Assembly (NCBI RefSeq): GCF_048403405.1
Contig: NZ_CP183129.1
Source of the DNA: Escherichia coli
Lineage (GTDB): Bacteria > Pseudomonadota > Gammaproteobacteria > Enterobacterales > Enterobacteriaceae
Direction: 5' to 3' (one strand)
Length of the DNA stretch: 64,000 nt
Part shown: piece by piece, positions 3,998 to 39,261 of the stretch
Layout: every line of letters begins with the position of its first letter
Position numbering within the stretch: the first letter of the stretch is position 1
Notes under the pieces: model-generated
The model's database searches: none
What the model saw: only the letters and a program-made list of their open reading frames with translations
Told to the model about the DNA's origin: nothing
Position numbers and translations under genes: made by a program

Positions 3998-4057
3998 TAC
4001 TGCTCCTGAGATATTAACAGGAGTAAGTGTAGACGTTGGGAAATGATGTTTGTGAAG

Positions 4058-4906: not shown

Positions 4907-5013
4907 TTTGTTCTCCTTAATTATGTAAAGAGTATTTGATCATGTATACGCAATAAAAAACAGCTTCAGGTAATGAGGAATATCTCAATTTTTAAACATA
5001 AAATGCGAATTAC

Positions 5014-5615: not shown

Positions 5616-5706
5616 TCGCAGTGATCTATATGCCAACGTCATCTTATTTTTCATCTACTCCAACGAGTAGACAAGTTTTTTATTAAACCATTTATACCTT
5701 TTACGA

Positions 5707-6210: not shown

Positions 6211-9200
6211 TTTATTAAGCCACTGCAATCAGCTGCTGTTTTATATGCTTTATTCTCTTCTTCCATATGGGCCTTATCTCCACCACCAAAGCACTGATTA
6301 TTAATCTGCTTTCTGACCGAAGCGCACGCCAAATTTATCTCGTACCGTCTCAATATTTCTTTTCTCAGCATCTGAGGAGCGCAAGCTCTAGACTGGTTAC
6401 ATAATCTGTTTTTTTCATTTTGTAAGTCACTCAGGTTCTGGGGACTACAGTTACCACCAGGATTTACACCTGACTTATGTTCATCTGTTAATTTGTCGGC
6501 TTCTGGATTAACTTTACGGCCATATTGATCTCTGCGTTGTTGCCCACTTTGGATAACACCACCTGATGAAAATAAACCGCAACTCATCAGTGCTACAACA
6601 CTAAGAATTAACGGATTTAACCCTTGTGGGTCTATCTCTGAGATCGGATTTAACGGATACTGATAAAAATTCCATCCCCCCTTAAGCCCAATCGGATCCT
6701 GAGTGATATACCGCCCCTGCAGCGGGTCATAATAGCGGTGGCGGTTGTAATACAGGCCGGACTCCTCATCATACTGCTGACCCGGCAGGCGGATGAGCTG
6801 CTGCAGCTGATGCGGGTTCTCTTCATTCAGCAGGTTGCCCCATTCATCGTATTCTGCGTACCACGCTGTTGTCCCTTCCGTGCTGACAAGCGCCAGCGGC
6901 AGGCCGCGATGGTCGCAGTGGTACAGGTGGATTTTTCGCGCCGGCGTGTACACCGGGTCCATCTGGTTTTGCATCTGCTCCACCGTCAGGCCGCACGATG
7001 CCAGCCAGCGGCGGCTTTCCTCGCTCACCCGGTCAGTAAGGATTTCACTTTCCAGCCGGTCGAGCATCTGCACCAGCACCGGCGGGAACACCACTCTGCC
7101 ACCGTCTTCGCCGCCGGACTGCTGAAGGGCATCCGCCAGGCTGCGGCGCTGCGTTTTCGCCAGCTCACCGGTGGCGGTTTCAACTCTGATGAGTGGCGTG
7201 AAGCTCCCCGGCTGATAAACCGTCTGGATGCGGGTTCTGTCGTTCTGTATTGTGGTCAGCCGGTCGCCGTCCCAGCCGTACCAGGTCACTTCCGGTTTCC
7301 GTGACAGCGACATCCAGCCCGTCAGGTCCCGTTCACGCCGCCATACCCGTTTTGCCACCCTGCGGCCCAGCGGGTCGTAAAGATAGCGACTTTCGACCAG
7401 CGGCTCTGCATATTGTGTCCGCGTGTAGTGCACCAGCCGGTGCCGGCTGTCGTAATGATACCGGTGAGTCCGCTCATCATCCGTGCGGATAACCCCTTCC
7501 GGGATGAGGTCGGTTTTCTCTGTCAGCCTGCCGTGACGGTCATACCGGTAAAGATAGTGCGCGTCACGGGCGATACGGTTATCCGGCCACATGCTGAGGG
7601 TGCTGTCCGGGTGCAGCTCCGGGTCGGGCAGGCGGTTGCCTGCCGGGTCCGTGGCATACGGGATGCGGATATCCAGATTCGCTGCGGTGGTGTGGACGCC
7701 GGTCAGCCTGCCGGTGTCGCTGTAGCTGTAACTCCGGGTCTGGCGCGGGCTGCTGATGCGGATGAGTTCGCCGTTGTCGTTCCAGGTGTAATCGCGGTCA
7801 TACTGCAGGCTGTTCAGGTGCTGGCTCTGTAACTGCCCGGCAGAGGTGTAAGCGGTGGTGAGTTCATAACGGCCGAAGCTGCGCAGCGTTTCCCGGTGCA
7901 GGCGGTCGCGGGTGAAATCCACCAGCGGTGTGTCGCCGAGTTTCATGCCTGACAGCCAGCCGCTGCCGTAGGTCAGCCATTCCACGGCGGGCAGGCTGTC
8001 CGGTATACAGCGGTTCGCCAGTCCCTGCGCGTTGTACGCATGTCTGGTTTCATGCTGCCAGAGCAGTGCTTCCGTCTGCGGGTGATGCACCGTCTGGCGC
8101 TCACCGGTCAGGCGGCCTTTCTCATCATACCCGTAATGCACCGTCACCCGGTGGCCTTCGCTGAGATGGCTGATGCCTGTCAGCCAGCCGCGTTCGTCAT
8201 ACTGCCACTGCTCTGCAGGTTCACCCTTCACGGTGCGGTGAGTGAGGCGGTCTGCTTCGTCATAGTGCCAGTGGGTGACCAGCCCCTCATCCTCGCTGCG
8301 GATAAGTTTACCGGTCAGGTCGTGGTGATAACGCTGTGTGCGGCCGTCAAAGCCGGTTTCCTGTATCAGCCGGTCAAGTACATCGTAACGGAAGGTGGTG
8401 TGGCTGCCGTTTTCACTGGTCAGGCGGATGACCCGCCCGGCAGCATCGTATTCCATACTGCGCGTCAGACCGCCCTGCGTGGTACGAACGGGCTTTCCCC
8501 ACGCATCGTACTGTGTCCCGTTTCTGCTGCCGTCCGGGGCAATGACGGCGGTCAGGTCACCGGCGGCGTTGTATTCATACCGCGTTTCATGGCCCTGCGT
8601 GTCTTTCACCGCAATTAACTGTCCACGGCTGTCGTATGCGCGGTACTGACTCAGCCCTTCCTCGCGGTGCACCGCCGTCACCTGACCAAAACGGTCATGG
8701 TCATAACGGGTTACATAACCGGAACAGTCAGTGACGGTCAGCAACTGACCGTAACGGCTCCATGTCATGGTTTTCCGGCTGCCGGTGGCATCTTCCGTTG
8801 CGCAGGGTAAGTCACTGTGTGGATTATCATAACGGTAGCGGGTGATATCGCCGTTGTGTGCGGTTTCCTGAATCAGACGGCCGGATTCATCATATTTGCG
8901 GCGCAACTCCAGCCCGTCAGTCCCGGTGGCTGACGTTAACTGGTTGTGGTGGTTATAGTAAAATGCCGATGCCCTGCCATCCGGTGTGGTGATGCGCGTG
9001 ATGAGTCCCGTCACCACATCCGGGCTGTACTCAGTCGTCCGGCCTGCGGCATCCGTCTGTGCCTTAAGCCCGCCCACCGCGTCAAACTGACTCTGCGTGA
9101 CGCTGCCGTCCGCGTGTTCCTTTTTCACCACCCGCTTCAGCCCGCCTTCGCCCTGCGTGTGCAGCACTTCACGGCGGTCCAGACTGTCGGTGATGGTGAT

Positions 9201-10358
9201 GCGGTCTTTCTCATACTGATACGTGTAGCTTAAGCCTGCCGGGTTTAGCTGTTCTGTCACCCGCCCGTCGCTGTCGTAACGGTAACGGATATCCGGCCGG
9301 CCCGTGTGACGGTGCGCCACCATCCGGCCCCGGTATTTATCATCGTAAGTAAAGCTGCGCACCTGTGTATTGCTGCGGTCATACACCGCCGCCAGTTCGC
9401 CGCGTGGCGTCCAGCCATAGCGCACCAGCGGCGCGGCAGGTAAATTCTCCGGGTATTCCGGGTCGTGCGTCAGCCACACGGCAGACAGACGGATGCCGTT
9501 GTCCCGGCCATATTCGGTGTAACCCGGCAGGGTATCAGGAAAAACGGACGGTTCCGTCCCGCCGGAAATGGCCTGCTGCCGGGCTTCTTCTGCCCGCTGC
9601 GCCTGCGTGGTCAGTACCAGCCGGAAGTGACGCCCGGCACCATCCGTCACGCCGGTGATTTCGCCGCTGAATTCGCCGCCAGCCTCACGGTGAAACGTCT
9701 GTGTGCGCCCGAAGCGGTCCACCAGCCCGGTCAGTACCCGGTACGGCGGCAGCGGCGCGGGCAGCACCTCATCCGCCTCCGGCACCCGCTCACACCAGCC
9801 GAGTACCCACCACGGCCCCTGCGGACTGTTTGTCGCCAGATAACGATGCGGACTCAGGCGAAGCTCTTCCGGCAGCGCCTGCCAGAGTGCGGCCAGCCGG
9901 TGACCTTCATCCAGTTTCGCCACGCCGCCGCGCACCAGCCAGAGTGACTCGCTGCGGCTGTAACCGTCCTCACCGGGAAACAGGTGCTCAAAATACAGGC
10001 TTCTGCCGCCGTTATCACTGAGTGTCAGTGTGTTATCGCGCAGCTGTAAGCGGATATCCGCAGGCATTTTCCAGCCGGGGCCGAGGCTCCCCACCGGCGC
10101 GGGCGTTTTTGTCCGGTAACTGCTGTAGGTGCGGGAGAGGATGAACGGCAGCGGGCCGGGCAGGGCAAGGTCGGTTTCGCCGGGAAGGACCTTCGCACCG
10201 AGCAGCGGATTGACCGGATGGCCGGACGTCACCCCGCCGGGGCACACCGAACAGGCCACGCCGGTGGGGGCACCAATACGTACCCCGGCTGAACCCTGAA
10301 CAATGCTACCGCCATACTGCGTCATGTCGCCCTGACGCGCCGCCGGTTTTCCGCTCAT
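6207..10358 (-). CDS. rhsC: Rhs-family polymorphic toxin (YD-repeat protein) with variable C-terminal tip
   Basis: 1383-aa product; N-terminus [31 protein letters not shown] (PAAR-like), many YD repeats ([33 protein letters not shown]), and the core-ending PxxxxDPxGL region ([32 protein letters not shown]) followed by a ~140-aa divergent tip. Chromosomal context (ybfA, kdp) matches rhsC. Confidence 0.9.
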
Positions 10359-10546
10359 CTGCTCATCCTTGTTTTATCGGGTTATTTGTCTGCTGACAGG
10401 CGAAACCCTACAGATTTATAAGAAAGCCTTAAGTGAGATATCTGTCAGATAAGAACAATTAGGAAAATATTTATATATATTTCATGAATATATGTTTCGA
10501 TTGGTATAACGGTGTCTAAATATTCCTCTGAACATCTTCCTGATAC

Positions 10547-10580
10547 AAAAAAAACCGCCAGCGTTTCCGCTGGCGGTTTT
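10547..10580. terminator. Rho-independent terminator hairpin (aaaaaaaaccgccagcgtttccgctggcggtttt)
   Basis: GC stem ccgccagcg/cgctggcgg flanked by an A-run and a T-run, just downstream of ybfA on the minus strand. Confidence 0.6.
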
Positions 10581-10602
10581 CAATGTATTCAAAACTCAGC
10601 AA

Positions 10603-10809
10603 TCAGTAAAAATCACCAGTTGCCTTTTCGGCCTGATCCATCCACACCGGTTTCTCGCTGGTTTTCGACCAGACGCGGTGCAGGTAGCTGTAAAAGCGGG
10701 CGCGGTCTTTCCAGAAAAGCATGAAAGGCAGCGCCAGAACGCCCGCTGCAACCGCATAAGTACGGCGTAAAAAGATAAGCCATGCAGGATATTCTCTGTA
10801 GAGTTCCAT
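10603..10809 (-). CDS. ybfA: DUF2517-family small protein YbfA
   Basis: 68-aa [71 protein letters not shown] at the expected position between rhsC and the kdp operon. Confidence 0.8.
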
Positions 10810-11018
10810 ACTTTTCTCCCCCTTTTGTATCTACCCGGTGAATGGCACCGGAAAAATGAATTTGTTTATCTGATGAAAATAGTACCGCCTTTTGTGTAAT
10901 TTTACTACTCATCCGACCACCTATTTTTGCTTATTGATGGTTTATTTACATTCACACTGTAATTAAGTTACACAAAAGTTAAATTAATACTAACCATCAG
11001 TTAAATCATGGCTTTTGC

Positions 11019-26362: not shown

Positions 26363-28027
26363 TTACTCGCCTACTTTCGCCCAGGTATCACGCAGCCCAA
26401 CGGTGCGATTAAATACCGGTTTTTCCGCCGTAGAATGGCGGCTGTCGAGGCAGAAATAACCTTCACGCTCAAACTGGAATGCTTTACCCGCTACCGCGTC
26501 TTTCAGAGACGGTTCAGCAAAGCCCTGTTTGATCACCAGCGATTCCGGGTTAATCACCGACAGGAAATCATCCGCAGCACCTGGGTTCGGCACGCTGAAC
26601 AGACGATCGTACAGGCGGATTTCAACCGGCAGCGCATGTGCCGAGCTCACCCAGTGAATAACGCCTTTCACTTTACGACCATCTGCCGGATCTTTGCTTA
26701 AGGTGTCGGCGTCATAAGTACAGAAGATGGTGGTGATATTGCCTTCGGCATCTTTCTCCACGCGTTCTGCCTTAATGACGTAAGCATTACGCAGACGCAC
26801 TTCTTTACCCAGCACCAGACGCTTGTACTGCTTGTTAGCTTCTTCGCGGAAATCGGCGCGGTCGATCCAAATCTCACCGCTAAACGGCACCTGACGGCTC
26901 CCCATTTCCGGTTTGTTCGGATGGTTCGGCATGGTAACCATTTCGCCTTCGCCCTGGTAGTTTTCGATAACCAGTTTCACCGGATCGATAACCGCCATTG
27001 CGCGCGGGGCGTTTTCGTTGAGATCTTCACGGATGCAGGATTCCAGCGACGCCATTTCAATGGTGTTGTCCTGCTTGGTCACGCCGATGCGTTTGCAGAA
27101 CTCACGAATAGAAGCCGCAGTGTAACCACGACGACGCAGACCGGAAATGGTCGGCATACGCGGGTCATCCCAGCCTTCAACGTGCTTGTCGGTCACCAGC
27201 AGGTTCAGCTTACGCTTGGACATCACAGTGTATTCCAGATTCAGGCGCGAGAATTCGTACTGGCGCGGGTGAACAGGAATGGTGATGTTGTCCAACACCC
27301 AGTCGTACAGGCGACGGTTGTCCTGGAACTCAAGCGTACACAGAGAGTGCGTAATACCTTCCAGCGCATCGCTGATGCAATGGGTGAAGTCGTACATCGG
27401 GTAGATGCACCACTTGTTGCCAGTCTGGTGGTGTTCAGCAAATTTAATGCGGTACAGCACCGGATCGCGCATTACGATAAATGGCGACGCCATGTCGATT
27501 TTCGCACGCAGGCAGGCTTTACCTTCTTCAAAACCGCCGGCACGCATTTTTTCGAACAGCGCCAGGTTCTCTTCAACGCTGCGGTCGCGGTACGGGCTGT
27601 TTTTACCCGGCTGCGTCAGGGTGCCACGGTATTCGCGGATCTGTTCCGGCGTCAATTCATCAACGTACGCCAGGCCTTTATTGATCAGTTCGATCGCATA
27701 GGCGTGGAGCTGATCAAAATAATCGGAGGAGTAACGGACGTTACCAGACCAGTGAAAACCTAACCACTCAACGTCGTTTTTGATCGACTCGACATACTCG
27801 ATATCTTCTTTTACCGGGTTAGTGTCGTCGAAACGCAGGTTGCACTGGCCTTTATAGTCCTGGGCGATCCCGAAGTTCAGGCAGATAGATTTCGCATGGC
27901 CAATATGCAGATAGCCATTCGGCTCCGGCGGGAAACGGGTGTGTACTGTGGTGTGCTTACCACTGGCCAGATCTTCATCGATGATCTGACGGATAAAGTT
28001 AGTCGGGCGGGCTTCTGCCTCACTCAT
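26363..28027 (-). CDS. glnS: Glutaminyl-tRNA synthetase
   Basis: 554 aa; class I motifs HIGH (LHIGHAKS) and KMSKS-type (VMSKRKL). Confidence 0.97.
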
Positions 28028-28246: not shown

Positions 28247-29008
28247 TTAATCGGCTATGATTAAACGCGTCGATAAGGACGCAAGCGTTCTACGCGTCTG
28301 CCCATCAAGCTGATTATCCGTAATAATCTCTGTCAGTTCATTAAGATGCGCGATATTAAACAGCGACCATGAACCGTATTTTGAGCTGTCAGCCAGGAGA
28401 ATTTTGCGCGAAGCATGCGCGATAAGATCGCGTTTTAGTGCGGCTTTCTCTTCCGTGGGTGCTGTAATACCCTTTTCAAGATCCCAGCTGTTACAGCTTA
28501 AAAATGCCACGTCCGGCCAGGTATTTTGCAGCAATTTACGACCATGTTCGCCAATGCAGGACTGGCTGGAGTCGTCGATACGTCCACCGATAATCGTCAC
28601 TTCAATCTGCTTGAATTCAGCCAAAAAAAGCGCGATATGCAGGTCGCTGGTGATCACGCGAAGCGGTAAATGTGTAATCTGCCGCGCAAGTTCAATCATT
28701 GTCGTACCGGCATCAAGGACGACGGAATCCCCCGCTTTGACCATTGACGCCGCTGCGCTGGCGATGGCATGTTTTTCCGCCAGGCTGCGCTGCATTTTCT
28801 CATGGGTAGTCGGTTGGGTAGGAATAAACCGGTTGAGGGTCACACCGCCGTGTGTACGGCTGATAACACCCTGCTCATCGAGTTTTATCAGGTCTCGACG
28901 AATCGTGGCCGGCGACGCATTGGTTACCGCCACCAGCTCATCAACGGTGACCAGATTATGGCTTTTCAGGTAATCCATGATCTGCTCTAACCGGTTATAT
29001 CCCTTCAT
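28247..29008 (-). CDS. DeoR-family transcriptional regulator (island gene)
   Basis: 253 aa with N-terminal HTH ([37 protein letters not shown]) and a DeoR-type C-terminal sugar-phosphate sensor domain. Its start codon lies 1 nt from the stop of the upstream PdxA-family gene. Confidence 0.8.
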
Positions 29009-29009
29009 T

Positions 29010-29996
29010 TTATTCTCGCGAAATCTGCATTGCTAACTGGATGGAAACTGCCATGCTCTCAGACTTGGCTTTTCCTGTCCAGGCAATATCAAACGCGGTG
29101 CCGTGGTCGGCAGAAGTGCGAATAAATGGCAACCCGGCGGTGATATTCACCCCATCATAAAATCCAAGCAGTTTTAAAGGGATATGCCCCTGATCGTGGT
29201 ACATAGCCACTACCATATCGAATAGCCCTTCATGGCATTGCATAAACACGGTATCTGGCGGGCACGGGCCAGTAACATCAATATCTTCGGCCTGCATTGC
29301 TTCAATCGCAGGCGCGATAATCTCGATTTCTTCAGTGCCGAATAAACCGTGTTCCCCTGCATGTGGATTTACACCCGCCACGGCAATACGCGGACGCTCA
29401 ATACCAACACGTTTCAGGAAGTGGTTCGCAACTCGAATAACCGTTTTGACCCTTTCACCATTCAAAGTATCCAGGAATTTACGCAGTGAGATATGCGTCG
29501 AAATATGGATAACCTTGAGCTTATCGGTATAGAGCACCATCGCGTACTCTTTGCTGCCGGTAAGATGGGCCAGCAATTCCGTATGCCCCGGATAGTTATG
29601 CCCGCCAAGATGCAACGCTTCTTTATTCAGCGGCGCAGTGGCTATGGCTTTCACCTCGCCTGATAAGGCCAGGGCCGTTGCACGTTTGATACAGCGATAC
29701 GCTAAATCGCCTGCCGCAGCCTGTACCACTCCGGGTGTCAGCGCATCGGGGTTAGCCAGCGGCTCATCCATCACGTTAATCACGCCGGGAGCAAAATGGG
29801 CGTCGCACACCTTTTCAATGACGCGTAACTCTGCCTTCGGCGTGATATTCATCGCCATAATACGTCTCAGCGTGCGCACACAGCCCACCACCACCACCGG
29901 GGCACCAGCAAGCCCGGCTTCGCTCAGGGATTTAATAATGATCTCCGGGCCAATACCCGCCGGGTCGCCCATCGTTACCGCAATAATATTATTCAC
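29010..29996 (-). CDS. PdxA-family NAD-dependent dehydrogenase (PdxA2-like)
   Basis: 328 aa; N-terminus [22 protein letters not shown] matches the PdxA GxPxGIGPE signature, and [11 protein letters not shown] matches the conserved metal-binding His region. Confidence 0.8.
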
Positions 29997-31227
29997 TACG
30001 CTTCTCCTCGATAAAATTCAGAACCTGATGCAACGTGGTCTCATCGCCAAACCCACCGGCTTTCGTCATCACCGAACGGGACCAGACGCCGCCCAGAAAG
30101 TGACCGTATGGAACGCATTGCGCCACCTTCGCCGTAATACGAAATCCGGTCGCGCCTAACGCACTGGCTGTTGCCATTGCGACATCACCACCAGAGAGAT
30201 AAAGCGCATCGGGCATTGCGCGAAGCAGAACTTGCCGGGTAAGTTCGCCAAGAAACCGGCAAATTTTTTCCCCAAGCGCAGCGCGACTCATCTGCCAACG
30301 CTGGCAAAGGGTGTCGATCTGGTGCCTTGCTACAGAATCGTTACAGGTGTGGACAATGCAGTGGTCGCCTTTCTGCAAGGCCTGCACAATACGCGCGTCA
30401 TAGTCACTGGCATTGCCTGCCAGAATGTGTTCAACATCGACGTATATCTGTGTGATACGTGGGTGTGAATGAAGTGTGGCGATCTGCCGTTGAGCGATTT
30501 CGCTCATTGAACCAATAATGGCCAGCACGGTGGGTGGCGGCATAATCGTGGAGCGCCGGGCAACGGCATCACAAATACCAGCGGAGCCGACCAGCAGCAG
30601 CGGTTGTTTAGCCTGCATCACAGCGGCAGCGATGCGATCCAGGTCGCTGTCCGTCTGCGCATCTATCACGCCAATCCACGGTTGCTCATAAGACAAATGG
30701 CTGAGCTGAGAAACCGTAACGGGCTGGCATGGAATGGCCGTCTGCAACCGGATGATGTCCGCAATTCGGGCGCTCAATACCGGGGTTTTCGGATCGCTGG
30801 CAAACTCGGTTTCCGTTATCCGCACACCGTTTACCCAACACTCACCGGCCACTGTGGTCCTTCCCGCCTGAGGAAATGCGGGGGCAACCACTGCGCCCGT
30901 TATACCGCATGCCTTCATCAGGGCTTCAATTTCTGCGCCAATATTGCCTCGCAGCGTGGAATCTATCTTTTTAATCACGAGCGGAGGGTTATTCGCCAGA
31001 GGGAGATGACTCATCAGCGAGGTTATTTTCATCGCCGCCAGCTTAGGATCCATCGCCCGGCTGTCGCTGTTAATCACCCATACGCTGGCATCACCGCGAT
31101 AAGGCATTTCAAAGGCCACATCAACTGTATGCCCCACCTGCGCCAGGCTTACCCCCGCGTCATTGGCTCCCGTGAAATCATCGGCAACGACGAGAATGCT
31201 CGGCTTAGTGATTCCCTTTTCCATCAT
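29989..31227 (-). CDS. DUF1537-family four-carbon acid-sugar kinase
   Basis: N-terminal signature VVADDFTGANDAG characteristic of OtnK/DtnK-type kinases; 8-nt overlap with the downstream PdxA-family gene. Start chosen at the ATG preceded by GGAG (MMEKGITKPS...); the track ORF starts 13 codons upstream. Confidence 0.75.
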   Translation of the reverse strand: MMEKGITKPSILVVADDFTGANDAGVSLAQVGHTVDVAFEMPYRGDASVWVINSDSRAMDPKLAAMKITSLMSHLPLANNPPLVIKKIDSTLRGNIGAEIEALMKACGITGAVVAPAFPQAGRTTVAGECWVNGVRITETEFASDPKTPVLSARIADIIRLQTAIPCQPVTVSQLSHLSYEQPWIGVIDAQTDSDLDRIAAAVMQAKQPLLLVGSAGICDAVARRSTIMPPPTVLAIIGSMSEIAQRQIATLHSHPRITQIYVDVEHILAGNASDYDARIVQALQKGDHCIVHTCNDSVARHQIDTLCQRWQMSRAALGEKICRFLGELTRQVLLRAMPDALYLSGGDVAMATASALGATGFRITAKVAQCVPYGHFLGGVWSRSVMTKAGGFGDETTLHQVLNFIEEKRSE

Positions 31228-31264
31228 CACTCCAGGTTGTTTTATGATAACAATGATTATATTC

Positions 31265-31278
31265 AATCACGATTGATT
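31265..31278. promoter_or_regulatory. Operator-like inverted repeat AATCA-cgat-TGATT in the island divergent promoter
   Basis: Read directly; shares the TGATT/AATCA half-site with the second palindrome at 31360..31375. Confidence 0.4.
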
Positions 31279-31359
31279 AAATGTGAGCAAGCTCAAGTTA
31301 TTAATCACTCGAATAAATTATAAAATTAGACCATGTTACGTAGGCTACGGCATTTTGAA

Positions 31360-31375
31360 TGATTGAATTCAATCA
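31360..31375. promoter_or_regulatory. Perfect 16-bp palindrome TGATTGAATTCAATCA in the island divergent promoter
   Basis: Read directly; lies about 20 bp upstream of the Fe-ADH GTG start, consistent with a repressor operator. Confidence 0.45.
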
Positions 31376-31393
31376 CCAGAAGAGAGGTTATTT

Positions 31394-32551
31394 GTGGTAA
31401 TTATCAATAGCACGATACTGAGCGGCGCAGGCGCTATCCCTTCCCTGACGTCGCTCTTACCCGACATCAGAAAAATGCTGCTGGTCACTGACCGTAATAT
31501 TGCGCAGCTCGACGGTGTGCAGCAGATTCGCGCCTTACTGGAAAAGCACTGCCCGCAGGTTAACGTTATCGATAATGTGCCCGCAGAGCCCACGCATCAT
31601 GATGTGCGCCAGCTAATGGACGCCCCTGGCGATGCCTCTTTTGATGTGGTGGTCGGGATCGGCGGTGGCAGCGTGTTGGATGTGGCGAAGCTGCTATCGG
31701 TGCTTTGCCATCCACAATCACCAGGGCTGGATGCGCTGCTTGCGGGTGAAAAACCGACTCAGAGGGTGCAATCATGGTTGATTCCTACAACCGCCGGAAC
31801 CGGCTCAGAAGCCACGCCGAATGCGATTCTGGCAATCCCTGAGCAAAGCACGAAGGTGGGTATTATTTCCCCGGTGCTGTTACCAGACTATGTGGCGCTT
31901 TTCCCGGAACTGACCACCAGCATGCCCGCGCATATTGCGGCGTCCACGGGCATTGATGCTCTTTGCCACTTACTGGAGTGTTTTACCGCGACCGTGGCAA
32001 ATCCGGTCAGCGATAACGCGGCGCTGACTGGGTTAAGTAAGCTTTTCCGGCACATTCAACCCGCCGTGAACGATCCTCAGGATCTGCGCGCAAAACTGGA
32101 AATGCTGTGGGCGTCTTACTATGGCGGCGTAGCGATAACCCATGCGGGCACGCATCTCGTTCATGCGCTCTCCTACCCGTTAGGTGGCAAATATCATCTG
32201 CCGCATGGCGTCGCGAATGCCATCTTGCTGGCGCCGTGCATGGCGTTTGTTCGCCCCTGGGCGGTCGAGAAATTTGCCCGGGTCTGGGATTGCATTCCCG
32301 ATGCGGAAACCGCCCTGAGCGCGGAAGAAAAATCTCATGCCCTGGTGGCCTGGCTACAGGCATTAGTCAATCAACTCAAGCTACCCAACAATCTCGCGGA
32401 TCTCGGCGTACCGCCAGAGGATATTGCCTCTCTTAGCGAGGCGGCACTGAACGTGAAGCGCCTTATGAACAATGCGCCGTGCCAGCTTGATCTACAGGAC
32501 GTACAGGCCATTTACCAAACACTGTTTCCGCAACATCAATTTAAGGAATAA
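31394..32551 (+). CDS. Iron-containing (group III) alcohol dehydrogenase family oxidoreductase
   Basis: 385 aa; NAD-binding GGGSxxD motif (VGIGGGSVLDVAKLL) and conserved His cluster (HALSYPLGGKYHLPHGVANA). GTG start preceded by GAGAGG. Confidence 0.8.
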   Translation: MVIINSTILSGAGAIPSLTSLLPDIRKMLLVTDRNIAQLDGVQQIRALLEKHCPQVNVIDNVPAEPTHHDVRQLMDAPGDASFDVVVGIGGGSVLDVAKLLSVLCHPQSPGLDALLAGEKPTQRVQSWLIPTTAGTGSEATPNAILAIPEQSTKVGIISPVLLPDYVALFPELTTSMPAHIAASTGIDALCHLLECFTATVANPVSDNAALTGLSKLFRHIQPAVNDPQDLRAKLEMLWASYYGGVAITHAGTHLVHALSYPLGGKYHLPHGVANAILLAPCMAFVRPWAVEKFARVWDCIPDAETALSAEEKSHALVAWLQALVNQLKLPNNLADLGVPPEDIASLSEAALNVKRLMNNAPCQLDLQDVQAIYQTLFPQHQFKE

Positions 32552-32554
32552 ATC

Positions 32555-33442
32555 ATGCCGAAAACCATTGAAGGTGTATTAACCGCCATCGTCACCCCGT
32601 TTACCGCGACCGGCAGTCTGAATATCCCGGCGTTAAAAGTGCAGGTGAATCGTCAACTGGAAGCGGGTAACGCGATTTTTTGCGGCGGCACCAACGGCGA
32701 GTTTTTTGTGTTGAATGAACAGGAGAAGCTCAGCGTTACGCAAACCTGCGTGGATGAAGTGGCTGGTCGTGCGCCGGTCGTGGCACACATTGGCGAGATC
32801 TCGACGCGCGAAACGATTCGTCTGGGTCAGCAGATTGAAAAACTTGGCGTAGATGCTGTGTCGGTCATTACCCCTTACTTCGTACCGCTGAAACAGGAAG
32901 AGTTGATTGCGCATTACAGCGCAATTGCCGACGCGCTGAGCATTCCGATGTTTCTCTATAACATCCCGGCCCGCACTGGCAATACGATCCAGCCGGAAAC
33001 CGCGCGTGCTCTGGCGTCGCATCCCAATATCATTGGGATTAAAGACAGCGCCGGAAGCGACGAAAGCCTGAAGGGTTTTCTCGATGCTGTGCGCAACATT
33101 GACGGCTTTAATGTACTCAACGGCCCGGATTCGCTGATCCATAAAGGGTTTGTCGAGGGGTGTTCAGCCTGTATCTCTGGGCTCGCCAACGTCGCACCGC
33201 GGGAAATCAATGCTATCTGGTCTCGCGTCCATGCCGGTGATATTGAAGGGTCTTATGAAGCACAGGAGAGTGTAACGGGCCTGCGTACCGACCTTTATAA
33301 AGTAGCGTTCTCCCCGGCTGCGGTGAAAAAAGCGTTGCAGCTTATGGGGCATGATGTTGGTGATAGCCGCTACGCGGTTAATTTCACGCCTGAACAGATC
33401 AGCGAGATTCAACAAATTATTCGTCATTATAACATTAATTAA
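32555..33442 (+). CDS. DHDPS/N-acetylneuraminate-lyase-family class I aldolase or dehydratase
   Basis: 295 aa; GTNGEF motif (CGGTNGEFFVLNEQEK), the Tyr-containing ITPYF segment and the Schiff-base lysine context IGIKDSAG, typical of DapA/NanA-family enzymes. Confidence 0.8.
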   Translation: MPKTIEGVLTAIVTPFTATGSLNIPALKVQVNRQLEAGNAIFCGGTNGEFFVLNEQEKLSVTQTCVDEVAGRAPVVAHIGEISTRETIRLGQQIEKLGVDAVSVITPYFVPLKQEELIAHYSAIADALSIPMFLYNIPARTGNTIQPETARALASHPNIIGIKDSAGSDESLKGFLDAVRNIDGFNVLNGPDSLIHKGFVEGCSACISGLANVAPREINAIWSRVHAGDIEGSYEAQESVTGLRTDLYKVAFSPAAVKKALQLMGHDVGDSRYAVNFTPEQISEIQQIIRHYNIN

Positions 33443-33501: not shown

Positions 33502-34260
33502 ATGTTTTTGTGGTTTATGCAGCCAGATATCTGGCTCACTTTAATTACCCTCACCTTTCTGGAAATTATTCTTGGGGTGGATAATATTATTTTTCTTTCA
33601 CTGGTGGTGGCAAAACTTCCGTTATCACAACAAAATATGGCGCGTAAACTGGGTTTAAGCTGCGCGATGATTATGCGGATATTATTGCTGATATCCATTG
33701 CGTGGCTTTCACATATTACCCAGCCGCTTTTTACCGTGCTGACGCTGGAGATTTCGTTCCGCACGTTGATTCTGCTCGGGGGCGGGCTGTTCCTGATTTA
33801 TAAAGCGATACAGGAGATACGCGAAGAGCTGTCGCCCGCGCAGGAAGACGAACATGGCAGCGGATCGCGGCAACTGTCGTTGTGCGGTGCCATCGTACAG
33901 ATAATGCTGCTCGATATCGTGTTTAGCCTGGATTCGGTGATCACCGCCGTCGGCCTTTCTCAGCATATATTTATCATGATTGCCGCCGTAATGATTGCCG
34001 TCGGTGTCATGATGTTTGCGGCGAAAACAATTGGTGATTTCGTTAACGCCACGCCGTCAATAAAAATACTGGCGTTAACCTTTTTATTATTTGTCGGTGT
34101 ATTGCTGGTTGCCGATAGTCTCAACATTCATATTGCCAAAGAGTATCTCTACTTCGCGATATTTTTCTCATTAAGTGTTGAGACACTCAATATTATCCGT
34201 GAAAGAAGAAATAAAAAAGTTTCGACATTGATCGAAACGCATGAATCGCACTCGCATTAA
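33502..34260 (+). CDS. TerC-family integral membrane protein
   Basis: 252 aa, multiple TM segments, paired TerC motifs GVDNIIF and LDIVFSLDSV. Confidence 0.7.
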   Translation: MFLWFMQPDIWLTLITLTFLEIILGVDNIIFLSLVVAKLPLSQQNMARKLGLSCAMIMRILLLISIAWLSHITQPLFTVLTLEISFRTLILLGGGLFLIYKAIQEIREELSPAQEDEHGSGSRQLSLCGAIVQIMLLDIVFSLDSVITAVGLSQHIFIMIAAVMIAVGVMMFAAKTIGDFVNATPSIKILALTFLLFVGVLLVADSLNIHIAKEYLYFAIFFSLSVETLNIIRERRNKKVSTLIETHESHSH

Positions 34261-34295: not shown

Positions 34296-35465
34296 ATGTC
34301 TGTAGCCCTTATTCGTGACGGCGTCATCCGTCCATCCGAAAACGATTCGCATGTGCTTACCGCCATGCTGCCCTCGTCCTGCCCACAAAACCACGCGGCG
34401 AATATTCTGCCTTTGCCGGATGGCGCGTTAATGTGCGTCTGGTTTGCGGGAACGCAGGAAGGTATTGCCGATATTTCTGTCTGGGGATCGCGATTGCCCG
34501 CTGGCGGGATGCAGTGGAGCGATGCGGTCAAACTTTCCCACGATGACACGCGTTCAGAGCAAAACCCAGTGCTGTTTCTCGCGCCGGATAACGTGCTGTG
34601 GCTGCTATGGACCGCACAAATATCCGGGAATCAGGACACCGCCATCGTCCGCTACCGTAAGTCAGACGACCTCGGACAAACCTGGGGCGAGATTGCCACG
34701 CTGCTCGATAAACCCGGCACGTTCATTCGCCAGCCGATCACGGTGCTTGATAACGGCAACTGGCTGCTGCCCGTCTTTTATTGCCGTACCCAACCCGGTG
34801 AAAAATGGGTCGGCAATGATGATATCAGCGCAGTGAAAATTTCCGCTGACGGTGGTCACTCCTGGCGCGATGTCGTGGTGCCGCAAAGTCTCGGCTGCGT
34901 TCATATGAATATCACAATGCTGCACGACAGTACGTTGGTTGCTCTCTTTCGAAGCCGTTGGGCAGACAACATCTATATCAGCCATTCAGTGGACAACGGC
35001 GAGAGTTGGTCGGTGCCGCAAGCTACCGAATTGCCCAACAACAATTCGTCTATTCAGGTAACGACGCTTGCCAGCGGCGAACTGGCGCTGGTGTACAACG
35101 CGATGAGTGCGGCAGGCGCAGTAGAACGTCGCGCGTCGCTTTATGACGAAATCGACGATGGCGACGACAGCCGCAAAGAACCGACAGCCGTCGGACGCTC
35201 CGCTTTCTGGGGGGCCCCACGCGCGCCGATGACGGTAGCGATTTCTGCCGATGGTGGGAAAAGCTGGCCGTGGCGGCGCAATCTCGATGAAGGCGACGGC
35301 TACTGCATGACCAACAATTCCCTGGAAAAGCTAAATCGTGAGTTCTCCTACCCCAGCATCAAACAAAGCCCGGACGGTACGCTACATATCGCTTACACCT
35401 GGTGGCGTCAGGCCATCAAGTACGTGCGCATCTCCCCCGAGTGGGTTAAGGGGCAGGCATCATGA
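34296..35465 (+). CDS. BNR/Asp-box repeat protein (sialidase-like beta-propeller), apparently cytoplasmic
   Basis: 389 aa with four Asp-box motifs (SDDLGQTW, SADGGHSW, SVDNGESW, SADGGKSW). The N-terminus MSVALIRDGVIRPSENDSHV has no signal-peptide features. Confidence 0.75.
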   Translation: MSVALIRDGVIRPSENDSHVLTAMLPSSCPQNHAANILPLPDGALMCVWFAGTQEGIADISVWGSRLPAGGMQWSDAVKLSHDDTRSEQNPVLFLAPDNVLWLLWTAQISGNQDTAIVRYRKSDDLGQTWGEIATLLDKPGTFIRQPITVLDNGNWLLPVFYCRTQPGEKWVGNDDISAVKISADGGHSWRDVVVPQSLGCVHMNITMLHDSTLVALFRSRWADNIYISHSVDNGESWSVPQATELPNNNSSIQVTTLASGELALVYNAMSAAGAVERRASLYDEIDDGDDSRKEPTAVGRSAFWGAPRAPMTVAISADGGKSWPWRRNLDEGDGYCMTNNSLEKLNREFSYPSIKQSPDGTLHIAYTWWRQAIKYVRISPEWVKGQAS

Positions 35466-35932
35466 TTATCGGTAATCTCAACCATTTGTCGCTGGCGGGG
35501 CTTCCCGCCTGGGTGAGAAATATTCTGCTGTGCCCGGAGTGTTCGTTATCGGCGTTATCCGCCAGAGAGGACGGTCGCTGGCAACCTGAAGGATGTCGGT
35601 GGTTCTGCACGCTGGGAACTTCAGACACGCAACCCGCCGAACTCCGCCATACGGAGTATCACCATCTGTGGGCCGATATCCAGGTGGTGATTACTGGTTG
35701 TGAGGGCATTAATGCGGGAACGCGGCCCATCGCTCGCGAAAACGATGAAGAACGTAAGCCCGATCTGTTTATCGCCCCATCCCCTGAAAACAGTGTCGCC
35801 ATCACTCTACACCCCGGTGATTTCGCCGTCTTTATGCCTGAGGAACCTCACCAGGCGCTGTGCGCGATTGGCGCGGCTACGTCAGTACGCAAAGCGGTCT
35901 TTAAGGTACCGCGCGACATGCTGGAAGCCTAA
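35462..35932 (+). CDS. YhcH/YjgK/YiaL (DUF386) family protein
   Basis: 156 aa; C-terminal segment LHPGDFAVFMPEEPHQALCAIG resembles the conserved PGxFxVFxPxEPH motif of the YhcH/EbgC-like family. 4-nt overlap with the upstream BNR gene. Confidence 0.7.
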   Translation: MIIGNLNHLSLAGLPAWVRNILLCPECSLSALSAREDGRWQPEGCRWFCTLGTSDTQPAELRHTEYHHLWADIQVVITGCEGINAGTRPIARENDEERKPDLFIAPSPENSVAITLHPGDFAVFMPEEPHQALCAIGAATSVRKAVFKVPRDMLEA

Positions 35933-35945
35933 AAGGAGAGAAAAA

Positions 35946-37226
35946 ATGACAATGGAAATGATCCTGGCATTAGGAATACTGGTCCTGATGATCGTGCTGA
36001 TCATGTCGGACAAAATGCCATTTGGCGCACCGCCACTGCTTGCGTGTTTATTGCTGGTTGTCTCGGGACTTTCGACCGTTCAACAGGCTTTTGCCGGATT
36101 CGTCAATCCAAGCGTGGTGATGATTGCAGGGTTTATGGTGGTCATGGCAGCGCTACAAAAAACCCGGCTTATCAGCAACGTTAAATCTGCGATGATAAGC
36201 CTGGTCAATAAAGGCAGTTACCGCAGCTACGGGCTGTTGTTAGTCATTGTTATGCTGGGTGCCAGTCTTGCAGGCACCGGCGCGACCGGTTATTACGTGC
36301 TGATTCTGTCGCTGGTATCCACCATTCCGTACAGTAAAAAGCTACCAACATCGAAATTAATGATGCCCCTGGGATTTGCCACCAACCACCCGCTTCTTCC
36401 TATCAATCTCGCGCTTCTCTTTGGCGTTACGGCGACCGTACTCGAAACCGCGGGTTTTCATCAGGAGATTTCGATGGGGCGCTTTGCGCTGGTGAATCTC
36501 ATCATGTCAGCGGCGTTCCTCGCATGGAGTCTTATTGCCTACCGTTTTCTTCCGGATCATCCCATTGCGGATGCTTCCGAGGATGCGCTGGCGGCACGCG
36601 AGGAAACGTTTAACGCCCTTCCTGCCTGGAAAGAATATTGCACTATTGCCGCATTCGCTGTCAGCGTTATCGGCATGATGCTAATGAACATTCTGGGAAA
36701 TATCGCCTTCGTTATTCCGGGTCTTGCGGGTGCGTTTGTTCTGATGATCGATGTACTGGACTTTAAAGAAGTTCGCGATCATATGGGAGCGCCGGTCATT
36801 TTAATGATGGCGGGGGTGATCGGTGTAGCTGATGCACTGGCGGGCACCGGCTTTACGGCGATGGTTGGCGATGCCGTTGCAGGTGTGCTCGGTTCTGGCG
36901 TCTCACCGTTTGTATTTATTGTCGCCTTTGCTTTGCTTACCAGTACCTGCGCCACCTTCACGGGTTCGAATATGGGGTCTGTTTATATTTTTGCCCCCAT
37001 CGCCATTGCCGCCTGTACCAGCCTTGGGCTTAACCCGACCGCTGCAGCGATTGCGGTGGTGATTTCAGGCTGGAACGGCGGCTATATGCCTATTGACGGA
37101 ATGCCAGCCATGATCCTCGGAATGGGGAAATACAAACTTCCCGAATTCTGGGTGTTCTCTGTACCAATGTATCTCATCCGCATTCTGGCGCTTTGTGCAG
37201 GCGCTGTTTTTATCTTCCCAATGTAA
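35946..37226 (+). CDS. Ion-transporter-superfamily anion permease (GntP/CitMHS/DASS-like), putative sugar-acid importer
   Basis: About 426 aa of polytopic membrane protein from the ATG at 35946 preceded by AGGAGA. The track ORF 35700..37226 carries an 82-codon non-membrane extension that overlaps the YhcH gene in another frame. Confidence 0.7.
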   Translation: MTMEMILALGILVLMIVLIMSDKMPFGAPPLLACLLLVVSGLSTVQQAFAGFVNPSVVMIAGFMVVMAALQKTRLISNVKSAMISLVNKGSYRSYGLLLVIVMLGASLAGTGATGYYVLILSLVSTIPYSKKLPTSKLMMPLGFATNHPLLPINLALLFGVTATVLETAGFHQEISMGRFALVNLIMSAAFLAWSLIAYRFLPDHPIADASEDALAAREETFNALPAWKEYCTIAAFAVSVIGMMLMNILGNIAFVIPGLAGAFVLMIDVLDFKEVRDHMGAPVILMMAGVIGVADALAGTGFTAMVGDAVAGVLGSGVSPFVFIVAFALLTSTCATFTGSNMGSVYIFAPIAIAACTSLGLNPTAAAIAVVISGWNGGYMPIDGMPAMILGMGKYKLPEFWVFSVPMYLIRILALCAGAVFIFPM

Positions 37227-37314: not shown

Positions 37315-39261
37315 TTACTTTTTGATTTCATACAGCGGCGTTTGACCCGCCACGACATGGCCCTGAGCTTTAATGATCAAGCCGCTGAAATCGTCGATAT
37401 TGCTGCAAACCACCGGGCTAATCATCGAGCGGGCGTTAGCGTTCAGGTAATCCAGATCCATTTCCAGAATCGGTTGTCCTGCGCTTACCTGCGCGCCCTC
37501 TTCCACCAGACGTTTAAAACCTTTACCTTCCAGCGCTACGGTGTCGATACCCATATGGACGACGATCTCCGCGCCTTTTTCGGTTTCCAGGCAGAACGCG
37601 TGGTTGGTATTGAAGATTTTCACGATTGTCCCTGCGGCTGGTGATACGACGATTTTATCTGTCGGTTTCACCGCCACACCGTCACCCACCGCTTTGCTGG
37701 CGAATGCTTCGTCAGGAACCTGATCCAGTGCCACAACATCACCGGTAATCGGCGATACCAGCTCCGCGACAGACACCGCGTTTGGTATAGCCTGCGGTTT
37801 TGCTACAGGCGCGGCAGTTGCAGGCGCAGTTTCAGCTGACGTAGCGGCTACCGGACCACGGGCAACAACTTTCTTCATTGCATCGCCAATGGATTCCGCT
37901 TTCGCGCCAACAATCACCTGAATAGTCTGTTTGTTCAGTTTCACTACCCCAGAAGCACCCAGCCGTTTACACATCGCATCGTTGACGCGAGCCGAGTCAA
38001 CCACGGTCAGGCGCAGACGAGTAATACAGGCGTCAATTGCTTTCAGGTTGTCAGTGCCGCCAACCGCAGCAATATAGTTGGTCGCCAGTTGATTGAGGCC
38101 TTCTTCAGTGTTGCTGTTGGCTTCTTCAGTAACGATCTCATCTTCTTTATCTTCACGACCCGGCGTTTTCAGGTTGAACATGCGGATAACCAAACTGAAC
38201 ACCACGAAGTAGATAGCGAAGAAGACAACACCCATCACCAGCAGCATCCAGACGTTCTGGCTGGCGGCCGGCAGGTTATACATCAACGCGTAGTCGATAG
38301 CCCCCGCAGAGAAGGAGAAGCCCGCGTGGATACCCAGCAGCGTTGCCACAAACAGGCTGATACCGGTCAGCAGTGCGTGCAGGAGGTACAGCAGCGGCGC
38401 AAGGAACATGAACAGGAATTCCAGCGGCTCAGTCACACCGGTCAGGAACGCAGTAACAGCAACAGAAAGCAGCATACCGCCAACCATCGGACGACGCTCT
38501 TTCGGTGCTGCAAAGTACATCGCCAGCGCCGCACCCGGCAGACCGAACATCATGATCGGGAAGAAGCCGGACATGAACATCCCCGCGGTGCCGTCACCGG
38601 CATAGAAGCGGTTGATGTCACCGTGGAAAACCGTACCCGCCGCGTTGGTGAATTCACCAATCTGGAACCAGGCGATGGTGTTCAGTACCTGATGCAGACC
38701 GGTTGGGATCAGCAGACGGTTGATGAAACCAAAGATACCGGAACCCAGCGCGCCCGCAGAAACGATCCACTCGCCGCCTGCATGGATAGCGTGCTGTACC
38801 GGCGGCCAGACGTAACCAAAAATGGCCGCCAGCACCAGGCAGAAGAAGCCGGTGGCAATCGGCACAAAGCGTTTGCCGCCGAAGAAACTCAGGAAGTCCG
38901 GCAGTTTAATATCGGACCAACGGTTATAAGCTGCGCCACCAACCAGACCGGTAATGATACCCGCCAGTACACCCATGTTAATTTCCGGGTTGATGGTCAC
39001 CATCGCTTTGGTTAACACAAAGTAACCTACCGCACCCGCCAGCGCCGCCGCACCTGCGCTGTCTTTCGACCAGCTGGATGCCACACCGATGGCGAAGATT
39101 AATGCGAGGTTATCAAAAATCGCACCGCCCGCCTGGGCAATAAACGCAACGTTAAGTAAATCTGGCTGACCGAATCGCAGCAACAGCGCCGCCACCGGCA
39201 GCACCGCGATAGGGAGCTGTAACGCCCTACCGAGTCGCTGGAAAAAACCTAAAATATTCAT
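37315..39261 (-). CDS. nagE: PTS N-acetylglucosamine-specific EIICBA component
   Basis: 648 aa; EIIC membrane domain, EIIB Cys region (IDACITRLRL) and C-terminal EIIA domain. Confidence 0.95.
   Translation of the reverse strand: MNILGFFQRLGRALQLPIAVLPVAALLLRFGQPDLLNVAFIAQAGGAIFDNLALIFAIGVASSWSKDSAGAAALAGAVGYFVLTKAMVTINPEINMGVLAGIITGLVGGAAYNRWSDIKLPDFLSFFGGKRFVPIATGFFCLVLAAIFGYVWPPVQHAIHAGGEWIVSAGALGSGIFGFINRLLIPTGLHQVLNTIAWFQIGEFTNAAGTVFHGDINRFYAGDGTAGMFMSGFFPIMMFGLPGAALAMYFAAPKERRPMVGGMLLSVAVTAFLTGVTEPLEFLFMFLAPLLYLLHALLTGISLFVATLLGIHAGFSFSAGAIDYALMYNLPAASQNVWMLLVMGVVFFAIYFVVFSLVIRMFNLKTPGREDKEDEIVTEEANSNTEEGLNQLATNYIAAVGGTDNLKAIDACITRLRLTVVDSARVNDAMCKRLGASGVVKLNKQTIQVIVGAKAESIGDAMKKVVARGPVAATSAETAPATAAPVAKPQAIPNAVSVAELVSPITGDVVALDQVPDEAFASKAVGDGVAVKPTDKIVVSPAAGTIVKIFNTNHAFCLETEKGAEIVVHMGIDTVALEGKGFKRLVEEGAQVSAGQPILEMDLDYLNANARSMISPVVCSNIDDFSGLIIKAQGHVVAGQTPLYEIKK

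Follow-up and report, generated by a model that had tools for sequence, protein, structure and literature searches.

A window of 64,000 nucleotides from the Escherichia coli chromosome (contig NZ_CP183129.1; all positions are counted from its first letter) contains, at 29010–31227, a gene for a PdxA-family dehydrogenase joined to a gene for a DUF1537 four-carbon acid-sugar kinase. Judged by its sequence, the pair is the known module of D-threonate kinase (DtnK) plus D-threonate-4-phosphate dehydrogenase (PdxA2), correctly annotated and ordinary when taken alone; what appears to be new is an undescribed and widely distributed pathway upstream of it. We propose, at a probability of roughly 55%, that the pair forms the last part of one regulon under DeoR control, and that the divergent operon of this regulon makes D-threonate inside the cell by means of an aldolase and an aldehyde reductase. 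The result that carries most weight is a double non-orthologous replacement: both feeder enzymes are exchanged for members of unrelated families at the same place beside the pair.

The pdxA2 reading frame (29010–29996, minus strand) starts with GTG and encodes 328 residues. The longest kinase frame spans 29989–31266 on the minus strand and has ATG candidates at 31227 (MMEKG...) and 31224; the RefSeq start, ATG 31224, is better placed behind a GGAG, so that the gene occupies 29989–31224 with 31227 as an alternative start. The kinase stop codon (29989–29991) and the PdxA2 start codon (29994–29996) define an 8-nt overlap (29989–29996), and the kinase translation carries the motif ADDFTGAND (VVADDFTGANDAG; in context, ILVVADDFTGANDAGV), both as stated in an initial annotation of this DNA. 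That annotation had also assigned the dehydrogenase to the PdxA2 type and the kinase to the enzymes paired with it, and the scores bear it out. PdxA2 reaches 681.2 bits with the NCBIfam model for D-threonate 4-phosphate dehydrogenase (NF002891, cutoff 583; residues 1–326 of 326), and it also passes the generic pdxA model TIGR00557 (370 bits, cutoff 290), much below its NF002891 score. Among structures in the Protein Data Bank (PDB), it matches 6e85 (named D-threonate 4-phosphate dehydrogenase) with 581 bits and 2hi1 (PdxA2) with 557 bits, as opposed to 193 bits for the PdxA structures 1ps6/1ps7, and a housekeeping PdxA identity was rejected on these values. The kinase has the Pfam architecture SBD_N (1.3e-53) plus NBD_C (1.1e-30) with an N-terminal ADDxTG motif. 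It exceeds the D-threonate kinase model NF047819 (532.5 bits, cutoff 450), stays far under the other DUF1537 models (OtnK, 106.7 vs 350; OiaK, 31 vs 700), and has 4xfm as its best PDB relative (316.6 bits). RefSeq already names the two genes D-threonate 4-phosphate dehydrogenase and D-threonate kinase. The OtnK oxo-tetronate route was rejected on the 106.7-bit score and on the lack of annotated LtnD/DenD, OtnI or OtnC between glnS and nagE.

According to Zhang et al. (2016), as cited in PMC10971088 and PMC9997740, the route catalysed by such a pair leads from D-threonate via 4-phospho-D-threonate to dihydroxyacetone phosphate (DHAP) and CO2. The E. coli proteins are 75.4% (PdxA2, P58718) and 40.4% (DtnK, Q8ZRS5) identical to those of Salmonella (PMC12928451). 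Between species of Enterobacterales the kinase is 40–57% identical and the adjacent PdxA2 74–83%, a marked rate difference within one operon, and the E. coli kinase is ~44% identical to the 4xfm-type ortholog of Pectobacterium. Because the kinase evolves much faster than PdxA2, its specificity seems less secure than the annotation suggests. The kinase and PdxA2 form a single open reading frame of 782 aa in Succinivibrio (survey locus L033, 8648–10996), and an unbroken reading frame of ~710 aa runs across both in Diaphorobacter (L091, ~8849–10981).

The pair lies in an accessory island of 9.3 kb between glnS (26363–28027, minus strand) and nagE (37315–39261, minus strand), which consists of nine intact genes in two divergent operons. 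The kinase, pdxA2 and deoR genes form the operon on the minus strand. The six plus-strand genes begin with an iron-containing alcohol dehydrogenase (Fe-ADH; 31394–32551), the predicted reductase of a C4 semialdehyde acid to D-threonate, and continue with a class I pyruvate lyase of the dihydrodipicolinate synthase (DHDPS) family (32555–33442), which is predicted to act as an aldolase on a 2-keto-3-deoxy dicarboxylic sugar acid. The latter is the NanA-like lyase of the initial annotation, and the sialidase-like neighbour reported there is a BNR_2 protein at 34296–35465 on the same strand. That annotation had further held that the pair is coupled to these two genes. Here it agrees with the comparative data: the two operons share an operator region, their genes co-occur in many phyla, and in some Firmicutes they form one operon.

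The context of PdxA2 was surveyed by scanning a PdxA2 alignment over one genome per species, which returned 80 loci that were scored for homologs of every island gene. The commonest layout (26 of the 80) comprises a KdgT-family transporter, the kinase and PdxA2, followed by DeoR in the Enterobacterales examples; a minimal instance is found beside speDE in Enterobacter sp. (L016). We take this transporter/kinase/PdxA2/DeoR layout to be the arrangement of Salmonella. Of the 80 loci, 19 have homologs of both the Fe-ADH and the DHDPS-like lyase and 3 have one without the other, and a pyruvate aldolase with an aldehyde reductase is present in 23 when four actinobacterial loci are counted. The linked pair spans Proteobacteria, Firmicutes, Negativicutes and Bacteroidota, and extends to Actinobacteria through other enzyme families.

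These actinobacterial loci carry the replacement. In Halopolyspora, Nonomuraea, Rhodococcus and Streptomyces, an aldo-keto reductase (AKR) and a GarL/HpaI-family class II pyruvate aldolase stand in for the Fe-ADH and the DHDPS-like lyase. The replacement pair sits in the slot divergent from kinase-PdxA2, next to a BNR or a 2-hydroxyacid dehydrogenase gene, and the sialidase-fold gene is retained in Halopolyspora and Nonomuraea. Since two unrelated aldolase families and two unrelated reductase families fill one slot, the activities required there would be those of a pyruvate aldolase and an aldehyde reductase. The module of aldolase, reductase, DtnK and PdxA2 has been put together at least two times from unrelated enzyme families. 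GarL and HpaI cleave 2-keto-3-deoxy dicarboxylates to pyruvate and a semialdehyde acid.

Outside Actinobacteria, the whole module is kept in Klebsiella, Yersinia, Aeromonas, Pectobacterium, Erwinia, Pantoea and Vibrio with varying transporters; most of its proteins are 72–88% identical, the kinase and the DUF386 protein only 51–64%. The Klebsiella michiganensis version has TerC and an SLC13 permease, that of Yersinia enterocolitica an SSF transporter and a short-chain dehydrogenase/reductase (SDR), the latter also found in the Pectobacterium and Vibrio clusters, and TAXI-TRAP systems serve Vibrio hepatarius and Succinivibrio. A proteobacterial metagenome scaffold shows an ABC system, a GntR regulator and an altered gene order. 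In Coprococcus catus, the kinase, Fe-ADH, DHDPS-like, PdxA, TRAP-Q/M, BNR and DUF386 genes form one co-directional run, and similar runs exist in Lucifera butyrica and Succinivibrio. The kinase of Pectobacterium zantedeschiae, nearly identical over its full length to the crystallised 4xfm protein (876 bits), belongs to a kinase-PdxA2-DeoR group that is divergent from Fe-ADH, DHDPS-like, SSF, BNR, DUF386 and SDR genes. This kinase thus sits in exactly the context found in E. coli, so that the description of the pair as lying outside the known context was overstated. The "usual dehydrogenase/isomerase partners" with which the context had been contrasted belong to the OtnK route; the minimal PdxA2-coupled route, as in L016, involves a transporter and a regulator only.

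A DeoR/GlpR-family regulator (28247–29008, minus strand; RefSeq annotation) is encoded by the last gene of the dtnK-pdxA2-deoR operon. It matches DeoR-family NCBIfam models, below their cutoffs throughout, and its orthologs are 72–83% identical and lie beside PdxA2 in minimal and extended loci alike. The 169-bp intergenic region that would control both operons (31225–31393) contains two copies of a 16-bp palindrome, TGATTATATTCAATCA at 31254–31269 and the perfect TGATTGAATTCAATCA at 31360–31375, 106 bp apart. Every DeoR-carrying locus of Enterobacterales, Vibrio and Succinivibrio, minimal loci included, has the corresponding TGATT-N6-AATCA site upstream of the kinase. Pairs of sites spaced ~103–106 bp are likewise present in Klebsiella, Yersinia, Citrobacter, Superficieibacter and Mangrovibacter; in Vibrio the spacing is ~92 bp. 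Because such operator-like sites are present both in the shared intergenic region and at minimal loci, one regulator would appear to control the feeder operon as well as the pair, and it probably senses D-threonate or its phosphate. Consensus scans for promoters and terminators gave background levels and were not used.

The lyase falls below the dapA and NanA cutoffs (dapA TIGR00674, 191.1 vs 206.15 bits; NanA NF003164, 147.8 vs 281; TIGR00683, 114 vs 382), and its closest PDB entries are true DHDPS enzymes (147 bits). Numbered along an E. coli DapA sequence, a subfamily signature of T44, N45, F107, Y133, R138 and K161 is kept in 22 of 25 aligned loci, the exceptions being fungal L009 and the Bacteroidota loci L041 and L079. 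Like DapA, the family of its nearest solved relatives, the lyase retains the Schiff-base Lys161, Tyr133 and Arg138; unlike DapA, it has Asn for Thr45 and Phe for Tyr107, so that the DapA triad T44/Y107/Y133 is incomplete, and its predicted direction is cleavage. In DapA, Arg138 is the residue to which aspartate semialdehyde, itself a C4 semialdehyde acid, is bound through its carboxylate, and the predicted products of the island enzyme, pyruvate and a C4 semialdehyde acid, would mirror the DapA substrates. The best NCBIfam matches of the Fe-ADH are ErcA (regulator-like), lactaldehyde reductase and 4-hydroxybutyrate dehydrogenase (~213–218 bits, all below cutoff), the last of which is a succinate-semialdehyde reductase. 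Its NAD and metal motifs (GGGS and the D/H/H/H ligands), read from the translation, are intact. KdgD-type dehydratase chemistry was rejected, as it yields no C4 hydroxy acid.

From sequence and genomic context, we predict the following steps. The SLC13 permease would take up an anionic sugar acid, and the sialidase-fold and YhcH-family proteins would process it, either by releasing it from a small glycoside or by handling its ring or anomeric form. The DHDPS-like class I aldolase would then cleave the 2-keto-3-deoxy dicarboxylic sugar acid to pyruvate and 2,3-dihydroxy-4-oxobutanoate; the latter is a semialdehyde acid of four carbons with the size and charge of aspartate semialdehyde. Its aldehyde group would be reduced by the Fe-ADH, at the expense of NAD(P)H, to a primary alcohol, which yields D-threonate. 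DtnK would phosphorylate O-4, the very hydroxyl newly made by the reductase, and PdxA2 would oxidise C3, whereupon the beta-keto acid would lose CO2 to give DHAP. The net conversion would be substrate plus ATP to pyruvate, DHAP and CO2, and the pathway would be redox neutral because PdxA2 returns the NAD(P)H spent by the reductase. The proposal of the initial annotation that the C4 acid arises by cleavage of a larger ulosonic acid thus stands in part: cleavage is the best-supported origin and is strengthened by the actinobacterial replacements, while the aldehyde reductase, which is linked in every case, points to a ulosaric (dicarboxylic) acid, since cleavage of a simple mono-carboxylic ulosonic acid would leave a neutral aldose. 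3-Deoxy-D-manno-oct-2-ulosonic acid (Kdo) was rejected as a substrate, because the D-arabinose formed by its aldolase could not supply a C4-acid kinase.

Tentatively, the leading candidate for the substrate is 3-deoxy-D-lyxo-hept-2-ulosaric acid (Dha), a constituent of side chain D of the pectin rhamnogalacturonan-II (RG-II), because its stereochemistry yields D-threonate, the isomer annotated for the pair. Dha is, to our knowledge, the only natural 2-keto-3-deoxy-heptaric acid. In a Fischer and Cahn–Ingold–Prelog derivation, D-lyxo Dha has the C5 hydroxyl on the left (R) and the C6 hydroxyl on the right (S). Retro-aldol cleavage between C3 and C4, reduction at C4 and renumbering from the old C7 carboxylate place R at C3 and S at C2, which is D-threonate (2S,3R). 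This match is not built into the Dha hypothesis. The DASS-type (dicarboxylate-type) permease of E. coli is consistent with Dha, as are the KdgM-family porin of Aeromonas, the plant, rhizosphere and gut habitats of the carriers, and the BNR homologs in fungi. Side chain D has the structure L-Araf-beta-1,5-D-Dha-beta-1,3-GalA (Araf, arabinofuranose; GalA, galacturonic acid), with Dha in ketosidic linkage, and heat alone frees this side chain (preprint 10.64898/2026.03.13.711244).

In Alistipes, an operon of DHDPS-like, SSF, Fe-ADH, PdxA and kinase genes adjoins a homolog of BT_1002 directly upstream (L095, 2030–5988; PDB 5mqp, E = 1.4e-44). BT_1002 is a GH141 enzyme of the Bacteroides RG-II locus, and the Alistipes arrangement, too, is consistent with Dha. 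A conserved Bacteroidota protein of 548 aa also adjoins the GH141 homolog. Tested as a GH143-type Dha hydrolase, it gave no sequence match among PDB chains and no Pfam family, and its model (pLDDT 75, mediocre) matches generic five-bladed propeller glycosidases (GH117 first, BT_0996 at rank 4), which is not identifying.

Several observations weigh against the proposed pathway or its Dha version. The link to RG-II is circumstantial, and members of GH141 have other specificities. About half of the loci with aldolase and reductase have a D-2-hydroxyacid dehydrogenase and an ACS-family MFS carrier in place of BNR and DUF386, which the Dha model does not explain. The DHDPS-like proteins of Alistipes and fungi are without R138, the reducing direction of the Fe-ADH is itself a prediction, and TerC recurs with no obvious role in a sugar-acid pathway. 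With the kinase ~40–44% identical to the studied DtnKs, its assignment to D-threonate would derive from a curated model and from its PdxA2 partner. The role of the sialidase-fold protein as a glycosidase is also uncertain, because its sialidase catalytic set has diverged: profile alignments place His33 at the RIP-motif/first triad Arg and His/Gln203 at the Glu partner of the nucleophile. A free monosaccharide acid, moreover, would not obviously need a glycosidase.

The same alignments place R219 on the second triad Arg, and Y352, R309 and R371 are conserved. The protein (34296–35465; Pfam BNR_2, 1e-63) gave an AlphaFold2 model with pLDDT 93.6, for which almost all of the top 50 Foldseek matches are sialidases (GH33 first; TM ~0.65–0.72), so that the model can confidently be read as a six-bladed sialidase propeller. 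The family profile also reaches sialidases (E ~4e-10), although a single-sequence PDB search with the protein found no match. No signal peptide was evident in its N-terminus, read by eye, and we predict a cytoplasmic feeder enzyme that acts before the aldolase: it may hydrolyse a Dha-containing fragment, or handle a lactone, anhydro or anomeric form. Homologs 47–50% identical are found on fungal contigs (L009, 8024–13403; L011, 10001–11182); on L009 the BNR gene is clustered with genes for a DHDPS-family protein, a PdxA-family protein, an MFS carrier and fungal transcription factors, which suggests a related pathway in fungi. Some distant BNR homologs were uninformative as to context, one being on a short contig and one on a fungal chromosome without the partners.

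The D-2-hydroxyacid dehydrogenase variant is found in Citrobacter, Pantoea sp. IMH, Superficieibacter, Mangrovibacter, Pelosinus, Niallia, Rhodococcus and Streptomyces, and Lucifera has both modules. It has the look of a further route that supplies the same aldolase. The dehydrogenase is SerA/GhrB/PdxB-like (L092, 4167–6502; L012, L013, L014, L017, L023, L037, L044, L060, L067, L070). In two actinobacterial loci of this variant the dehydrogenase alone was detected, the MFS partner being found in the proteobacterial and Firmicute loci.

A coupled pathway with other chemistry survives best among the alternatives, though we consider it unlikely. A mono-carboxylic ulosonic acid would be cleaved to pyruvate and a neutral tetrose, with oxidoreductases interconverting tetrose, tetritol and tetronate; or the substrate would be an acid sugar other than Dha. 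This comes close to the wording of the initial annotation, and it could draw on the SDR of Yersinia, Pectobacterium and Vibrio, on the 2-hydroxyacid dehydrogenase of the alternative module, and on SSF and TRAP carriers, which also move mono-acids such as sialic acid. However, Fe-ADH and AKR enzymes interconvert aldehydes and alcohols and make no acids from aldehydes, and whereas the reductase is universal, neither the SDR nor the 2-hydroxyacid dehydrogenase is. A second carboxylate on the substrate is indicated by the GarL/HpaI-type replacements and by the retention of R138, and the E. coli carrier is of the DASS type.

It is still more improbable that two independent pathways lie side by side, with dtnK-pdxA2-deoR serving external D-threonate as in Salmonella and the divergent operon an unrelated sialic-acid-like sugar. 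Minimal loci of KdgT-type transporter, kinase, PdxA2 and DeoR do exist and are indeed the commonest, and the trio of NanA-like, NanQ-like and sialidase-like genes superficially resembles a Nan system. However, the island has no KdgT-type carrier for D-threonate, the aldolase and reductase recur beside PdxA2 across phyla, partly as unrelated enzymes, and the genes form a single co-directional run in Coprococcus and Succinivibrio and share an operator region in E. coli. True sialic-acid catabolism was itself rejected, as the NanA and NanQ models score below cutoff and neither NanK nor NanE is annotated in the island. That the pair works mainly for vitamin B6, phosphorylating 4-hydroxy-L-threonine to feed pyridoxal 5'-phosphate (PLP) synthesis, is very improbable: PdxA2 does pass the generic PdxA model, but E. 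coli has its own pdxA, the island is accessory, being present in 19% of genomes, and the neighbours of the pair, namely transporters, a lyase and a reductase, are of a catabolic kind. PMC12928451 attributes the pair to PLP synthesis, which is a documented side activity of DUF1537/PdxA2 pairs (Thiaville et al. 2016, cited through PMC9997740 and PMC10971088), and not the main catabolic role described in PMC9997740.

The proposed D-threonate-forming regulon resembles several known systems in part. With the D-threonate locus of Salmonella enterica it shares the two predicted reactions, a PdxA2 that is ~75% identical and a DeoR-family regulator, and the Enterobacter analogue of that locus (L016) has the same TGATT-N6-AATCA site. 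It differs from the Salmonella locus in a kinase that is only ~40% identical, in the lack of a KdgT-type carrier and in the extra divergent six-gene operon that apparently generates the substrate. The Pectobacterium kinase of PDB 4xfm/4xgj, an Enzyme Function Initiative (EFI) target, was reportedly among the DtnKs assayed by Zhang et al. in 2016. The cluster of its near-identical P. zantedeschiae ortholog has the same context, with Fe-ADH, DHDPS-like, BNR and DUF386 genes divergent from kinase, PdxA2 and DeoR, but differs in having an SSF transporter and an SDR and in lacking TerC and SLC13.

The logic of an aldolase that yields pyruvate and a semialdehyde acid, a reductase that yields a hydroxy acid, and a kinase is also that of the E. 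coli GarL-GarR-GarK route for glucarate and galactarate, and the actinobacterial versions share the GarL/HpaI-family aldolase with it. Unlike that route, the proposed one would be one carbon longer (a C4 instead of a C3 fragment), would use DHDPS-like, Fe-ADH and DUF1537 families, would add an oxidative decarboxylation by PdxA2 and has no dehydratase. Nan catabolism likewise draws on a sialidase-fold protein, a YhcH-family anomerase (NanQ) and a lyase of the DHDPS family (NanA) for its first steps, and its transporter families (SiaT or SiaPQM) overlap in some species; the island differs from it in the diverged sialidase catalytic set, in the absence of a NanK/NanE/NagA/NagB logic and in its downstream reductase, DtnK and PdxA2. 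The OtnK route for L-threonate and D-erythronate (LtnD/DenD, OtnI, OtnC; ygbJKLM in E. coli) shares the DUF1537 kinase superfamily and the DHAP end product; in contrast to it, the island has no annotated homologs of OtnI or OtnC, and PdxA2 decarboxylates.

The window segment 28000–33500 is 100% identical to several complete E. coli genomes. Among 5426 complete E. coli genomes, the island was found in 1048 (~19%), essentially intact in 1047 of these and chromosomal every time. The region corresponds to GR6 (nagE..glnS) in PMC12928451, which is common to extraintestinal pathogenic E. coli (ExPEC) strains and the adherent-invasive (AIEC) strain LF82 and is classed there among "uncharacterized features". 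Carriers of the pair in other genera are largely associated with plants, the rhizosphere or the gut (Klebsiella oxytoca group, Kosakonia, Pantoea, Erwinia, Pectobacterium, Yersinia, Coprococcus, Succinivibrio), and Sinorhizobium is also among them (PMC12928451). The four-carbon acid sugar kinases of S. meliloti are mentioned in PMC12904279, which gives no functional clue. Searches of the literature on the breakdown of Dha, on the combination of genes and on the glnS–nagE island turned up PMC12928451 only. The literature searched contained no description of a Dha catabolic pathway, no explanation of the module of aldolase, aldehyde reductase, DtnK and PdxA2, and no published role for the neighbours of the Pectobacterium 4xfm-type kinase.

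It is possible, if doubtful, that the island represents the first described catabolic pathway of Dha, a ulosaric acid of seven carbons that occurs in RG-II only, with D-threonate as an obligatory intracellular intermediate, and that E. coli of the B2/ExPEC type and many plant and gut bacteria cross-feed on RG-II debris. An equally speculative extension has primary degraders such as Bacteroides releasing this debris and the sialidase-fold protein acting as a new kind of enzyme on fragments such as L-Araf-beta-1,5-Dha. Should the proposed chemistry of aldolase and reductase be correct, D-threonate, the natural source of which has hitherto been unclear, would gain a physiological origin, and functions would be assigned to one subfamily each of DHDPS and Fe-ADH and to a large family of sialidase-fold proteins of the cytoplasm, which extends to fungi. 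A gap in how microbes degrade the most complex of plant polysaccharides might then be closed, and an accessory metabolic trait would be defined for ~19% of complete E. coli genomes, including ExPEC such as UTI89 and ST95.

The remaining genes of the plus-strand operon encode a membrane protein, a helper protein and the carrier. A YhcH/YjgK/YiaL (DUF386) protein (35462–35932), whose gene overlaps the BNR gene by 4 nt, scores above TIGR00022 (97.3 vs 45.5) and below NanQ NF040884 (91.5 vs 160), which makes it a member of the family and not NanQ; we predict an anomerase or ring-opening helper for a ulosonic-type acid. The SLC13/DASS-family anion permease (35946–37226; RefSeq name), the predicted importer of the acid substrate, reaches 56 bits with the DASS model, below cutoff, and its orthologs match Pfam Na_sulph_symp and CitMHS. 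Elsewhere it is swapped for SSF, TRAP, TAXI-TRAP, ABC or MFS carriers. The DASS, SSF, TRAP, TAXI and MFS-ACS families commonly carry organic anions. The Aeromonas cluster ends in a gene for a KdgM-family outer-membrane porin (L006, 13888–14592); this family comprises oligogalacturonate and sialic-acid channels, and its presence fits uptake of an acidic sugar. A TerC-family membrane protein (33502–34260; RefSeq and NCBIfam) has counterparts in Klebsiella (L002, 9210–9971), Aeromonas (L006, 13056–13805) and a distant locus (L010, 2645–3688), and is absent from the Yersinia and Pectobacterium clusters.

Elsewhere in the window, at ~4139–10358 (L094, 17643–23862), the core gene of an RHS element precedes a small open reading frame, an RHS C-terminal fragment that is orphaned, and an ISAs1 transposase in truncated form. 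Low GC content (0.40 in 4001–6000) coincides there with the RHS variable tip, the orphan fragment and the transposase remnant.

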